From contig JBLWVX010000019.1 of the NCBI GenBank assembly GCA_048268245.1, forward strand, positions 1 to 49,283: a stretch of 49,283 nucleotides of DNA. The letters run 5' to 3'. Origin of the DNA: Arcobacteraceae bacterium (lineage in GTDB: Bacteria; Campylobacterota; Campylobacteria; Campylobacterales; Arcobacteraceae). Made by a program: the position numbers. Numbering within the stretch: position 1 is the first letter of the stretch; every line of letters starts with the position of its first letter. Positions 18,001-24,000 of the stretch are shown here, one piece after another.

Positions 18001-21000
18001 ATGTTGTGGTAAAAATGCGTGTAAATACTCTATAGCTTTTTCTTCATCTATTATACTGCCCATTGCATTTGCTAAAACCATCAAGTTCCATCTAGCTACA
18101 TATGGCTGATTATTATAAGAGTATCGCCCTTCACTATCTGTATGATTACAAATACAGTTTTTATCAAAATAATCCATAAAAGCATACGGCCCATAATCAA
18201 TAGTAAGGCCTGCCATAGAGAAGTTATCAGTATTTAAAACTCCATGCATAAAGCCATATGCTTGCCAATAAGCTACAAGTTCACTACTTCTATCAACTAA
18301 CTCATAAAACATTTTTTGATATTTATTTTCTTCATTTTTTAAGTGAGGATATGACTGATTTATCACATAATCTGCAAGTTGAGTTATATTTGCTTTAGCA
18401 TTATCAGTTCTTGCAAAAAACTCAAAAGTTCCTATTCTTATCCAAGAAGGTGAAAGTCTCATTACAATAGAACACGATTCACTTTCCCATTCTCTATGGG
18501 CAAATGATTCTGAGTCTATGATAGCTAAGGCTCTTGTAGTTGGTATTCCTAAAGCATGCATAGCTTCACTCATAATATATTCTCTAATTGAAGATCTAAG
18601 AACTGCTTTTCCATCACCTTGTCTTGAATATTTTGTAAGACCTGAACCTTTTGTTTGCAAGTGCCAACCGTTTATGCTTCCTAAGTTTATAGCTCTTCCA
18701 TCACCAAGTTGTGGTACAAAATACCCAAACTGATGACCTGCATAAACCATAGAATAAGGAATTGAGCCTTTTAAAACCTTCTTTCCATTCATAAAATCTA
18801 AAAAATCTTGCGTCTCACACTCTTCATAATCTAAACCTATTAAATCACAGGCTTGTTTGTTAAAAGAAACTAACTTGGGATTTAACACAGGTGTTGCATC
18901 TAACTTTTGATATAAACTCTCATCAAATTCAAAATAATCAATATTTACTTCTAATTCATCTAATTTCATATATTTTCTCTTTTATAATTGTTTGTATTTT
19001 TTATAGATTATCTAAAAAATCCACAAAACAAGATAAATTTTGTCCTATTTAAACTTAACACAAACTACACGAAAAAAATCTATACTAATAAAAATTCAAA
19101 AAGGAATATCTATGAGAAGAATAGTACTTGCAATGCTATTTTTTCTTTCAACTTCACTGTTTGCTTTTGAAGAGTTAACAGATGAAAATTTTGATGAGAA
19201 AATAGCAGGAAAAAATGTAATCGTTGATTTCCACGCAATCTGGTGAGGCTCTTGTAAGGTTCTAGAAAAGAACATGACAAAATATGCTACAAGTACTAAA
19301 CCCAATAATATCCACATCTATAAAGTAGACGTTTCAAAACAAAAAGAACTAACAAAAAGATTTAAAGCATTTGGTGTTCCAACACTTGTGTATCTTGAAG
19401 ATGGTATGGAAGTAGGAAGACACTCAGGCGTTTTAAGTGTAGAAGAACTTGAAGAAACTGTAAAAGAATACTTTGAATAAATAAAAGAGGCTTTGCCTCT
19501 TTTATAAAATACTATAACTTTTTATTATAATAAAAATTACTTCATTTTTTCTCTTAGTAAAACTTCGATATAATCCCCTAAAAAGTATTAGGACTCTTAT
19601 GAAGAAACATGTTGAAACATCATTAAGCCATATTGCAAAATTTGCACCATTTGCTGAACAAGCAGGTGCTTCACACTTTCCTATTTACAACACAGGAACA
19701 TTTGATTTAAAAAAACAAGATGGCGATAAAATTTATGACTATACAAGAAGTGACAACCCTACAAGAGAGATGTTAGAAAATCTTTTCACTGAAGTAGAAG
19801 GTGGTGCTGGATGTGTATGTACACACACAGGTATTGCTTCTGTTGCACTTTTATTTGAGACAACTCTAAAAGCAAACTCACATATTTTAGTTGAAGCTGA
19901 CTGTTATGGCGGAACATTTAGACTTCTAAAAGTATTTAAAGAAAAGTACAATGTAACAGTACACTTTGCTAACTTCTTAGAGTTTGATAATATGGAAGAG
20001 ATTCTAAAAAACAACCCAATTGATTTAGTTTTATGTGAGAGTCCTACAAACCCTGGTCTTAAAATCATTGATTTAAAAGAAGTAGCTAACTTAGCACATA
20101 AGTACAATGCTTTATTTGCAGTTGATAACTCACTTGCTACATTTATAAGTCAAAGACCTATTGAGCTTGGAGCTGATTTTTCACTATTCTCAACAACTAA
20201 ATATATCTCAGGTCACGGTGCAGTTGTTGCAGGTGCTATTGTTGCAGCTACAAAAGAGCTAAGTGATGAAGTTCACTACTATGCAAATGCAGGTGGAAGA
20301 AGTCAAAATCCTATGGATGTGTACTTAATCACACTTGGTATTCCAACACTAAAAGTTAGAATGAAAGAACATGAAAAAAACTCTATAATTATTGCTAAGT
20401 TTTTAGAAGAGCAAGAGTACATCACTAAAGTTACTCACCCAGCACTAGAGTCACATCCACAACACAAGCTAGCAAAAGAGCAAATGGATTATATTCCAGG
20501 ACTATTCTGTGCAGATTTCAAAACACTTGAATTAGCTGAGAAGTTTATAGAAAACACTAAAATTTATGGTGAAAAGTGTTCATTTGGAAGTCCTGATTCA
20601 AGAGTAGAAATTCCTGCTAAGATTTCTCATGCTTCATTTAGTAAAGAGGAATTAGAAGCTATTGGGATTGCAGAGGGAACAGTGAGATTCTCAATTGGTT
20701 TAGAAAATGTAGAAGATTTAATCGAAGATATAAAACAGGCAGTAAAGTAAGAAGGCAATAAATGAACAAAAACTATTTTAATCACATCCCAACAGGAGAA
20801 ACTCTACCTGTAAACAATGTACATGCGGTTTCAGTATCGATGCCCTATTTACAAGATGTGATTGATTATGAACTACAAACTCCCGAAATTCTTGACACTA
20901 TAAAAAGTGGTTATCCAAGGTTTGTACTTCATCCTTATTTAAAACAGCTTGGACTTTATATCAAAGAAAAATATAAAGTAAGTGATGATTATGAAGTAGT

Positions 21001-24000
21001 AGTGCTTAGTTCTCAAAAAGCTGTAAAGCTTGTAAGTGATAAATATTATATAAACAATAAGCTTGAAGTAGATGAAGCTTTTGGTGTTATCTTAGTTCAA
21101 AGAAATACTTGTCAATTACAAAGAGTTTTAAGTTATATTCAACATGTAGGCTGCAACCTATCTTCAAGACTTGCTGAAAAGTATCTTTATGATTTAGGAT
21201 TGATTGATAAAATACATGAAGAAGAGCTGGAAGAAGAATCAAAAGCTCATGATATTATCATTGACACACTAGCTAGTGCTTATAATCAACCAAAAGATAA
21301 AGTATGCCTAGCACCATCTGGAATGAATGCAATTTATTCAGTTATAAGAGGTATCAACTCTATTCAAACACACAATGGAAGAACTGTTTTAGTTCAGTTT
21401 GGTTGGCTTTATTTGGATACTATGAATATAGTAAATTATCACTATCAAGAATCAAAAGTTTTTCCTGATATTTTAAATCTTGATTTACTAGAAGAGTATT
21501 TAAAAACAGATGGCTTAAAAGTTAGCGCCATTATCACAGAAGTTCCAACAAACCCTCTTTTAAAAACTGTAAATATAAAAAGATTAAGAAAGTTATGTGA
21601 TGAGTATAATATACCTTTAGTTATTGATACAACTTTTGCTACACCTTATAATCTAAACTTAGAAGATTACGCAGATATTTTTGTAGAATCTCTTACTAAG
21701 TTTGCTTGTGGAAATGCTGATGTTTTAATGGGTGCAATTATTTTAAATAAAAGAAATAATCTATCACATATGACAACAGAGTTTTTCAAACATTGTGACC
21801 CAGTTTATATAAAAGATAAACAAAGATTAGCACTACAAATAAAAGATTATAAAAACAGAGTTAAAAAAATAAGTTCAAATACAAAAGCCTTAGCTGCTTA
21901 TTTTGAAGAGTGTTCTTATATTGACAAAGTCTTTTACTGTTTAAATGAAGAAAACAAAGACAACTATTCTCAAACAATGAGAGATGACAATAGCCTTACA
22001 GGTATTATATCTGTTACTTTTAATAGAGCATTTAAAAAAGTATATGACAAACTAAACTTTGCCAAAGGACCTAGCTTAGGTACTGAATTTACACTTCTTA
22101 TGCCATATACTTATTTAGCTCATTGGGATTTAATTCAATCAAAGCAAGGAAACAAGTTCTTAGAAGAAATTGGTCTTCCTATAGATTTACTTAGAATTTC
22201 TGTTGGAGTAGAACCAATTGATGAGATTATAAATGAATTTAAAAAACTAGAAGAATAAATCTTCTAGTTTATAATTTTAAGACATTTTTCACTCTAAGTA
22301 GTGAATCATCTTTAGATAATGTAAGTCTTACAATTGAGTCTTCATTTGCTTTAAGATTATGTACAATACTGGCTTCTAAACTTACGATATCGCCTTTTAC
22401 AAGATTATAAACCTTTTCACCAACTCCAAAATCAATTGAACCCTCAAAAATTTCAACTGTAATAGGATAAGCTGTTTTATGATCTTTCATAATTTGTTCT
22501 TTTTTAAAAACTATACGAATCTCTTTTGAAAAAGCAGTCTCTAACATAGGAGATACTTTTACTTTATCTTCACCATATTCAATATGGTCATAAATATTTA
22601 CTTTTTCCATAATAAAACCTTTTAATTTAATATCATAATTTTATCTTGAGAAAAGAAACAATACATTGATTATAATCAAGAAAGTTTTGCTATAAAAAAG
22701 AAGTTATTATCAAAACTACCCTCTTCTAAAAGCTCATAATTCTCATTTAATAAAGTTAAAACTTCATTTTTTTCAATCTTATTTTTGTCTAAAATATGAA
22801 AGATTAGACCTTCTTTATTTAAAATATTTTTTTGATTTTTTAAAGAATCATTGAGTTGAACAAGAGATAAACTATCTAAAGTATTTCTTGAAAAAATAGC
22901 ATCGAACTTCTTGTGTGTATCAATTGTAACTTTATCTATTAAAATAACTCTTATATCAATAAATTCATCTTTTAAAAATCTTGTTTTAACTTTTTCGTCT
23001 TCACTTGCAACTACTTCATAATATGAATGAAGTAGTTTTAAATCATCACCTTTTTTACTTCCTAGTTCTAAAACTTTTTTAAATCTTGGAAGATATTTTC
23101 TAAAAGTCGTGATAATATCCATTTTTATTCCTTATAAAATATCTGCGTTTAAAAGAAGTAACAATCCTAATGCAAACATTACAATAGGAGCTAAAACCTC
23201 CATTATGTTGATTATTTTAGTAGATTTAGCTGATACTTTATTTAAAGATACTCCTAAAAATGATGAAGCAAAGATTACAAGACCCATTCCAAGAGAAATA
23301 GCAATACTTGCTAAAATTACTGAAAAATAAGTTTTTAAAATAAAAGCATATACAAAAAGAACTACTGTTCCAGGACAAGGTATAAGTCCAGCAGTTAATA
23401 CAAATATCAAGTCTTGCTTTTTTCTTTCATTGTTAAAATGAATTTTACTCTCAAACTTTTGTACAAAGTTTACATTTCCAGTTATAGAAAACATTGGTTT
23501 CTCTTCTGTACTACAACAAGCACTACAAGCACAAGATTTTTTCTTTAGTTTTCTATATAAAATATATATAGATAAAAGCATTATTAAAACTGCACTTGTT
23601 TGAGTAATGTATTTAATAGAATCATCTAAAAAACTATTTAAAACACTTTGAAGTATAAAAATAGAAATCACAACTAAAATCAGTGCTCCAACAATATGAA
23701 TAAATGCAGTTGCAAGTGAAATAATAAACGCTTGAAAATATGAACTTTTTTGAGCACTAAAGTATGAAAAGGCTAATGCTTTTCCATGCCCAGGTCCCAT
23801 AGCATGAATTATTCCATATACAAAAGATACTACAAGTAAAAATAGTAAAGCCCATTTATCTTCACCCTTTTCAATCTCTACTAAGTAATATTTTACTTTC
23901 TTCACAAAACCACCTAAAAGAGTCTCTTCTTTTTGAGTTTTTTCTTCTTCTAAAGATTTTTCAATTAGATTTTTTTCTTTCTTTCTAACTTCAGTAACAC

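Follow-up and report, generated by a model that had tools for sequence, protein, structure and literature searches.

A long-form PLP enzyme of the BesB group, paired with a beta-lyase-like gene in Arcobacteraceae, as a probable cystathionine gamma-synthase

Within the window, i.e., the whole 49,283-nucleotide stretch analysed here, an Arcobacteraceae bacterium carries two adjacent PLP enzyme genes, g01773 and g01774 (Table 1), the second of which is related to BesB, the terminal-alkyne-forming PLP enzyme of Streptomyces (PDB 9AUA/9AUB; NCBIfam NF042918). The locus raises the question of which reaction such an enzyme performs in a genome where tblastn finds no besD or besC homolog at E<=1e-5. 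Homologs of g01774 are already labelled gamma-synthases in databases, by homology, and the first-pass annotation took g01774 for a fungal-type cystathionine gamma-synthase, co-transcribed with metC, that probably supplies the missing transsulfuration step. From the observed fold, residues, gene context and distribution, we consider it probable that the gene pair is a module for forward transsulfuration, with g01774 as the cystathionine gamma-synthase and g01773 as the beta-lyase.

Table 1. Features of the g01773/g01774 locus (positions in the window)
Feature	Coordinates	Strand	Description
g01773 ORF	19599..20750	+	383 aa, Cys/Met-metabolism PLP enzyme
Intergenic spacer g01773/g01774	20751..20761	+	11 bp, purine-rich GAAGG stretch
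g01774 ORF	20762..22258	+	498 aa, long-form PLP enzyme, Str2/CndF/BesB fold
g01774 N-terminal extension	20762..21211	+	~150 residues, carries invariant YPR motif
Terminator-like hairpin	22244..22270	.	spans g01774 stop codon, common to convergent cupin gene

The short spacer and its GAAGG stretch are consistent with an operon. Two contigs that derive from relatives' RNA-labelled runs span the junction, a kind of evidence that cannot demonstrate one single transcript. The hairpin (11 pairs, T-run on both strands) is a consensus match only, with 2 found versus 0.8 expected in shuffles; the promoter scan stayed at chance level (17 vs 17.2), and Rfam gave no match between positions 17000 and 24000.

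That g01774 is a full-length BesB homolog is borne out, since its residues 6–495 align to the BesB structures and it shares 34.3% identity over residues 13–494 with BesB of the S. cattleya locus. Its predicted structure superimposes on BesB with a TM score of 0.93 (rmsd 1.5–1.8 Å, 489 residues aligned), as compared with 0.63–0.72 for CndF and 0.51–0.58 for canonical enzymes. At 498 aa it is not the ~385-aa short form of canonical MetB; the canonical short-form structures align only from residue 150–164 of the model on, while BesB aligns from residue 4, and the N-terminal extension is absent from canonical MetB, CGL and CBL. The score with the canonical MetB model TIGR02080 (76.5) lies below the cut of 504.55, as does the score with the NCBIfam BesB model (340.1, cut 800); ESM Atlas gave generic names only. 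Among PDB sequence matches, the BesB F231Y variant 9aub ranks first (259.1 bits), followed by 9aua (257.3) and then CndF (136), as had been claimed. However, the lead of 9aub over 9aua is 1.8 bits and comes from the single residue F231Y, and the structural Z scores of the two tie at 52.2.

This residue marks the difference from BesB, as Tyr217 of g01774 aligns with Phe231 of BesB, in agreement with the earlier reading. The motif GWLYLDT is indeed seen in g01774, but the GWIYFDT to which it had been compared belongs to the F231Y variant, whereas wild-type BesB reads GWIFFDT. A motif table shows that Tyr is the default across the whole Cys/Met PLP family, and it therefore does not identify the reaction of g01774: the Tyr argues against BesB chemistry without making a specific case for a gamma-synthase. 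In metagenomic loci the Tyr/Phe state tracks with gene context. The Phe-type relatives fall into a single clade and lie next to besD/besC-like genes, which were found beside 0 of 80 Tyr-type loci. The DNA scan used a 24-row subset, the full alignment A1 being too diverse, and because the patterns of this subset favour Tyr-type proteins, the 80/80 Tyr count and one set of the Tyr/Phe groups are partly by construction. Non-Streptomyces metagenomes contain divergent besB-besD-besC cassettes of the Phe type, several of them adjoining NRPS genes.

These relationships bear on a rival role for g01774, the synthesis of a specialised non-proteinogenic amino acid through gamma-substitution or halide elimination, in the manner of CndF or BesB. 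These two enzymes are its closest solved relatives, and the spread of the long-form gene is patchy (1 of 285 genomes in the phylum's other families and 4 of 201 Flavobacterium). Yet besD/besC homologs are lacking both in this genome and at the 80 Tyr-type loci, the neighbours are housekeeping or Met/Cys genes, and the gene is retained in single copy over whole genera, so that this function appears very improbable.

The description as "fungal-type" needs qualification. Enzymes of this type are known chiefly from fungi, and the long-form architecture is shared with fungal Str2p/Met-7, together with a YPR motif near the N-terminus and a partner beta-lyase in the pathway, but in unrooted trees g01774 groups with BesB and other bacteria, apart from the fungal sequences, at a split with an SH-aLRT of 100. 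In the tree with an outgroup, a clade of Arcobacter and fungi is not rejected (AU p=0.197). In these trees chytrid proxies stand for the fungi, yeast Str2 is absent, and one supporting tree was built by a quick method. The chytrid proxies (~27–28% identity) fall on the GFPY side of the tree, in contrast to the ~500-aa g01774 on the GW side, where BesB is the only characterised member; the GFPY profile scores CndF, a fungal enzyme from a natural-product pathway, better than BesB (388 vs 296).

The closest functional guide is Candida Str2p, which has been assayed and is mainly monomeric, with Y45, R47, Y312, K407 and R572 as reported residues (PMC13715334). The key residues of g01774 are Y51-P-R53, S186-G-M, Y217, D289, the PLP lysine Lys313, S438 and R478, of which Y51, P52 and R53 are invariant in 135/135 alignment rows. 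The Str2-type set is thus present as Y51/R53/Y217/K313/R478, with Tyr–Lys–Arg spacings of 96 and 165 as compared with 95 and 165 in Str2p, an equivalence that relies on the motif and the spacings instead of a direct alignment. By analogy to Str2p, which guides the substrates, direction, monomeric state and residue roles proposed here, g01774 would be a PLP enzyme of the long form that catalyses gamma-substitution, probably as a monomer. O-acetylhomoserine from MetX would bind at Lys313 as an aldimine, its acetate would leave with a proton from Tyr217, and cystathionine would result from the addition of L-cysteine to the vinylglycine intermediate. This cystathionine would then be cleaved by g01773 to homocysteine for MetE/MetH. 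Tyr51 and Arg53, whose counterparts in tetrameric relatives come from an adjacent subunit, would be supplied in cis by the N-terminal extension.

The name metC for the upstream gene had gone further than the data. g01773 matches PF01053 at 356.6 bits but stays below every listed NCBIfam cut, those for beta-lyases included (TIGR01329 298.8/487.5, PRK08064 284.6/627, NF043007 236.9/700), so the name is an inference; PDB searches likewise do not rank beta-lyases first. Its residues do point to a beta-lyase. Besides the PLP lysine Lys201, g01773 has SFG and SHA motifs and a Cys where CGL and CGS have Glu (Cys or Val in 16/16 orthologs), i.e., the non-Glu/SHA pattern of beta-lyases, without the MGL cysteine. 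The same pattern is seen in Listeria MetC, in a Bacillus CBL that exceeds its cut and in the fusion domains described below; its diagnostic value is read from these few references and in part from background. The tree places g01773, with moderate support, as sister to eukaryote-type CBL domains (85/94, SH-aLRT 95), and the alternative placement is not rejected (AU p=0.28). From sequence, g01773 probably represents a separate subfamily of cystathionine beta-lyases.

This assignment has to be weighed against exchanged roles, in which g01773 is bifunctional or itself the gamma-synthase and g01774 a gamma-lyase or a scavenger of another S-substituted substrate (cystathionine, homocysteine or S-alkyl amino acids). 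g01773 does score about equally with CGL, CGS and CBL models (285–308, all below cut), sits on a long branch (1.2) with the unusual motifs GHGAV and EKCSFG, and has a precedent in bifunctional MetB/MetC (GapMind 2026), and PatB could take the beta-lyase step. However, g01773 lacks the Glu that is present in MetB, MetI, MccB and CGL-like references and that has been linked to gamma-specificity (PMC6073527), never occurs without g01774 in family genomes, and has Flavobacterium counterparts in a type of cluster whose setting between sulfate reduction and metX/metH implies synthesis. We therefore regard exchanged roles as unlikely.

g01774 occurs in 121 of 183 other Arcobacteraceae genomes, or 122 of 184 including this one, where the first-pass annotation had given 121 of 184. 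An ortholog of g01773 (>=68%) is present in 114 of these 122 and never in family genomes without g01774; the two are adjacent, and tightly spaced, in 112 of the 114, confirming that g01774 lies directly behind a Cys/Met-family gene. Eight genomes with g01774 have no such partner, and PatB is over its cut in 4/4 of those tested. A PatB-type C-S lyase scores above its cut in the present genome as well (449 vs 340) and could be a second beta-lyase candidate, judging by this profile match, one overlooked earlier. As reported before, the genome has metX, metE and metH, and its only strong PF01053 genes are MetY, g01773 and g01774. MetY is found in 150 of 152 good family genomes, so there is no methionine gap and the notion of a missing step falls. 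In Arcobacteraceae the pair would instead be a second route beside MetY, with cysteine and not sulfide as the sulfur donor.

The same pair occurs in Sulfurospirillum and in 10 Flavobacterium/Bacteroidota-type loci. In three Flavobacterium genomes (G190, G192 and G193) it stands first in a cluster that contains cysH/D/N/E/K and, at a greater distance, metX-like, hom and metH genes, divergent from metK; cysJ/I and metF were also scanned in G190 and G192. A cluster that follows sulfate reduction and precedes metX/metH indicates synthesis, not breakdown. No PF01053 match of MetY size was found in these three, and no PatB in G190; for Flavobacterium the exclusion of MetY amounts to 0/4 only. In the MetY-less Flavobacterium genomes there is also a canonical enzyme of ~381 aa that passes the PRK07811 cut for gamma-synthases (528–533 vs 513), unlinked to the Met/Cys cluster. 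In F. terrisoli the pair lies upstream of metY, metX and hom, so that both MetY and the pair are present, and in G266 a MetY/MetZ-size match lies near the pair. Control of the pair by SAM-II riboswitches was rejected, the riboswitches in the Flavobacterium loci being on the metK strand.

Fusions add to this picture. Two ~940-aa proteins, one from the choanoflagellate Choanoeca perplexa, join a beta-lyase domain to a long-form domain in the order of the operon. Their beta-lyase domains exceed the TIGR01329 cut (509 and 490 vs 487.5), and their long-form domains are of the GFPY subtype, not the GW subtype of g01774. When longer proteins were searched for, three fusions of unrelated or unclear kind came up; the search is insensitive, because the two known beta-lyase fusions were not recovered. 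An 893-codon frame with a PF01053 match in G187 is not readable as a fusion.

The nucleophile does not follow from fold and Tyr, because the same scaffold includes the C–C-forming CndF, which uses a beta-keto acid, and Hsu1/Yll058w, a yeast Str2 paralog that is an O-acetylhomoserine sulfhydrylase/homocysteine synthase (10.1101/2022.03.14.484209); both share with g01774 the predicted electrophile, O-acetylhomoserine. g01774 might thus be mainly a sulfhydrylase, with g01773 or PatB as a cysteine desulfhydrase feeding sulfide. Such an enzyme would replace MetY in the Flavobacterium clusters equally well, and stand-alone copies in Opitutae need no beta-lyase neighbour. It would, however, duplicate MetY in almost all Arcobacteraceae and in those Opitutae genomes that have MetY, the tight linkage and the beta-lyase fusions are better explained by a cystathionine intermediate, and the Hsu1 activity is possibly promiscuous according to its authors (10.1101/2022.03.14.484209). 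A sulfhydrylase is consequently judged improbable. The pairing of a long-form gamma-synthase with a beta-lyase is retained, on the Flavobacterium clusters without MetY, the fusions and the Tyr/Phe context in place of the earlier arguments from Tyr, fungal type and a missing step. In its predicted net reaction and in the logic of a two-gene operon, it matches canonical MetB/MetI and MetC, but here the beta-lyase gene comes first.

The long-form family comprises 444 clusters at 50% identity (E<=1e-30) and was located at no fewer than 586 places in GTDB genomes. The 46 Verrucomicrobia-labelled loci and those of Leptospirales and Spirochaetales have neither a beta-lyase neighbour nor a Met/Cys context; the gene is single copy in 16/16 genomes of one Opitutae family. 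g01774-type proteins are likely the progenitor stock of BesB, and BesB is proposed to be a branch of this bacterial group that carries Phe and was recruited to besD/besC cassettes. More tentatively, and with slightly more doubt than belief, a further bacterial transsulfuration system of a monomeric long-form gamma-synthase and a eukaryote-type beta-lyase or PatB may extend across Arcobacteraceae, Opitutae and some Flavobacteria as the primary-metabolism stock of BesB, which would have arisen once by a Tyr-to-Phe change coinciding with besD/besC recruitment; the Phe-type cassettes would then point to unreported alkyne-bearing peptides.

The proposed reaction of g01774 is itself ordinary, and its label had already been guessed by databases. 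If correct, the assignment would give a function to this large bacterial family, of which no mention was found in the main text and supplements of GapMind 2026 under the terms searched. It would also provide a small bacterial surrogate of fungal Str2p, which has no known crystal structure and is discussed as an antifungal target (PMC13715334), a natural Tyr-bearing comparison for the gain of alkyne chemistry in BesB, and a one-residue marker for locating new alkyne pathways.

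The two adjacent genes g01773, which encodes a Cys/Met-type PLP enzyme, and g01774, a long-form homolog of the Str2/CndF/BesB fold, form a conserved two-gene module that most likely comprises a long-form cystathionine gamma-synthase together with its beta-lyase. Only 11 bp separate the two genes. The thioredoxin-like frame listed in the table is probably a selenoprotein overlooked by ORF callers, and a tRNA-SeC is present in the same genome.

Features of the window around the g01773/g01774 pair
Feature	Position	Strand	Description
SelO/YdiU protein adenylyltransferase	17515-18969	-	divergent from the thioredoxin-like gene and from g01773/g01774
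Thioredoxin-like frame	19112-19480	+	hydrophobic N-terminus; in-frame TGA at first Cys of CxxC (W-U-G-S-C)
g01773	19599-20750	same strand as g01774	383 aa ORF
g01774	20762-22258	same strand as g01773	498 aa ORF
Terminator-like hairpin	22244-22270		end of g01774
Metal-uptake genes	23132-26055		NicO/DUF1007 protein, His-rich ZnuA-like binding protein, Fur-like regulator

Against the NCBIfam BesB model g01774 scores 340.1 (cut 800), the remaining Cys/Met models giving at most 95 bits, and among PDB entries its residues 6-495 match the BesB F231Y variant (259.1 bits), wild-type BesB (257.3) and then CndF (136). The BesB motif GWIYFDT quoted in the first-pass annotation is that of the F231Y variant, but wild-type BesB reads GWIFFDT. 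The AlphaFold2 model of g01774 (pLDDT 95.7) gave TM scores of 0.93 with BesB, 0.63-0.72 with CndF and 0.51-0.58 with the canonical enzymes, which superpose solely from residue 150-164 onwards, showing that the first ~150 residues constitute an extension. In an alignment of 135 full-length rows (g01774 and 134 of the best 150 representatives), Y51-P-R53, G187, E260, D289, S310, K313, G440 and R478 are invariant, while position 217, the equivalent of BesB Phe231, is Tyr in 128 rows, Phe in 6 and Asn in 1. Tyr likewise occupies this position in the MetB, MetI, MetC, MccB, MGL and MetY references, the MetZ reference being the exception; Tyr217 would at most rule out BesB-type chemistry and gives no reaction identity.

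Candida Str2p, as described in the available text of PMC13715334, was assayed with O-acetylhomoserine and cysteine and is mainly monomeric, and the residues named, Y45, R47, Y312, K407 and R572, all lie in one chain. The spacings calculated from these published numbers, 95 and 165, compare with 96 and 165 in g01774 (Y51/R53/Y217/K313/R478). By this analogy g01774 would work like fungal Str2p, yet the unrooted trees place it apart, in a mostly bacterial subgroup to which BesB also belongs; "fungal-type", the term used earlier, suits its architecture. The same scaffold is also used by the homocysteine synthase Hsu1/Yll058w (10.1101/2022.03.14.484209) and by CndF, which joins O-acetylhomoserine to a beta-keto acid (PMC11331486), both going by the accessible parts of these sources; g01774 could thus conceivably act as a sulfhydrylase, or the functions within the pair might be distributed differently from those predicted. 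The gamma-synthase remains the preferred prediction.

Unrooted quick trees divided the family, with an SH-aLRT of 100, into a GW side (g01774, Flavobacterium, Opitutae, spirochaetes and BesB) and a GFPY side (chytrids, a choanoflagellate and other bacteria); when four short-form sequences were added as outgroups, support for the GW side was 95. A topology in which the Arcobacter rows group with the chytrid rows, opposite BesB and the outgroup, was not rejected (p=0.197), leaving the root of the long-form family unsure. g01774 shares 34% identity with BesB and 27-28% with chytrid homologs, and it is not itself a BesB member. Two chytrid long-form proteins, P0417 and P0418, carry an additional A-to-I editase or WW domain, which may reflect gene-model fusion.

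A metagenome scan using three Phe-type representatives as queries returned nine loci, six of which (L204, L205, L206, L208, L209 and L211) have adjoining besC- and/or besD-like genes; the others are a truncated twin of L206 (L207), a short locus (L210) and a short Tyr-type fragment (L212). L204, L205, L206/L207 and L211 are divergent besB-besD-besC cassettes (GC 40-66%) with BesB-like proteins 40-43% identical to S. cattleya BesB (BesB-model score 476-498), and in the three of these four loci scanned the BesD-/BesC-like neighbours fall under their cuts. NRPS genes lie downstream in L206, L209 and L211, whereas in L204 it is an ATP-grasp gene that follows; in L209 a more closely related besC-besB pair is located 5' of the NRPS. 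These cassettes are candidate alkyne-amino-acid pathways beyond the known Streptomyces clusters. In the available text of PMC8341276, further Streptomyces are the sole source of the BesA-D homologs reported. The ten Phe-type rows group together in a single clade (SH-aLRT 98), and besD/besC homologs were found in none of the 80 Tyr-type loci, some of them short, nor in this genome, the retrieval patterns being biased toward each type. This supports the earlier proposal of an ancestral Tyr, with Phe as the mark of the alkyne pathway. Phe at this position outside the bes clade (P0254, P0260, P0268) represents independent substitutions, and P0254 and P0268 stand apart from that clade in the tree.

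The partner g01773 scores below all listed NCBIfam cuts. Where the MetB, MetI, MccB and CGL-like references carry a Glu, tied to gamma-specificity in the part of PMC6073527 available, all 16 aligned g01773 orthologs have Cys or Val; they lack the MGL cysteine, and their SFG and SH motifs resemble those of Listeria MetC, of a Bacillus beta-lyase that exceeds its cut and of the fusion domains described below. In trees, the clade adjoins eukaryote-type beta-lyase domains (85/94; SH-aLRT 95 with three rows dropped), an alternative placement not being rejected (p=0.28). The genome also encodes a PatB-family C-S lyase (L121:1498-2655, G000:C27; 449, cut 340), possibly a second cystathionine beta-lyase, and PatB was present in 4/4 tested family genomes without a g01773 partner.

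The names of homologs assign the genome to the Arcobacteraceae. Within this family, g01774 occurs in 122 of 184 genomes, and a g01773 ortholog (at least 68%) in 114 of these 122; the remaining 62 genomes have no such ortholog, and two additional matches at 37-38% are other paralogs. The orthologs adjoin in 112 of 114 genomes, as read from coordinates by eye, the remaining two being split at contig ends, and a scripted check of fetched loci gave 24/25. A phylum sample contained g01774 in 13/16 own-family genomes and 1/285 others. In a GTDB scan reaching outside the phylum, at least 586 long-form stretches were confirmed out of at least 599 candidates. Among the matches listed, 80 loci were examined: a g01773-like neighbour is present in 30 (Campylobacterota and 10 Flavobacterium/Bacteroidota-type loci), and the other 50 lack one (46 Verrucomicrobia-labelled, Leptospirales, Spirochaetales, one other and one truncated). 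Each genome of one Opitutae family (16/16) has a single long-form match. An interrupted second long-form copy lies near an IS481 transposase (L117:16298-17796, G065). The Flavobacterium-like pair labelled Limnohabitans (L054) and the Arcobacter-like pair labelled Paceibacteria (L089) are possibly on mis-binned contigs.

In Flavobacterium the pair is divergent from metK and directly 5' of cysH and cysD in 9 loci, and of cysN, cysE, cysK and cysG/cobA in 8. In G190 and G192 the cluster goes on with cysJ, cysI, cysG, a metX-like gene (below cut), aspartokinase/homoserine dehydrogenase, a split metH and metF; G193 was confirmed to carry metX-like, hom and metH genes. No MetY-size PF01053 match was found in 4/5 such genomes and no PatB in G190, leaving the pair as the sole within-cluster candidate for converting O-acetylhomoserine to homocysteine. 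However, the MetY-less genomes also encode, not linked to this cluster, a ~381-aa enzyme that passes the gamma-synthase cut of PRK07811. In a 201-genome Flavobacterium sample, the long form (4) and MetY (95) did not overlap, numbers too small for significance, and F. terrisoli carries both the pair and MetY. A SAM-II (long loop) riboswitch lies beside the pair on the metK strand in L042, L043, L048, L052, L054, L068, L075 and L082. Two ~940-aa fusions, P0363 from the choanoflagellate Choanoeca perplexa and P0369, join an N-terminal cystathionine beta-lyase domain (TIGR01329, whole-protein scores 509.1 and 489.6, cut 487.5) to a Str2/BesB-type long-form domain.

IMG and some NCBI records label homologs as cystathionine gamma-synthase by homology, and in the available text of Van Oss et al. 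(PMC9763685) homologs from Verrucomicrobia, Prosthecobacter and Prochlorococcus served as outgroups only. The accessible main text of GapMind 2026 (PMC13759103) names neither BesB, Str2, Arcobacter nor Flavobacterium, and its six supplements do not contain the searched taxa; PMC10041140 and PMC11506715, available in part, provided background only. No study of this bacterial long-form family was found in a literature search leaving out most subscription papers. The genome contains MetX (PRK00175, 404.9, cut 331), MetE and MetH, as well as a MetY located in the cys operon. The first-pass annotation had g01774 probably supplying a missing transsulfuration step; since 150 of the 152 family genomes of high quality have MetY, the pair would be a second route rather than a gap-filler.
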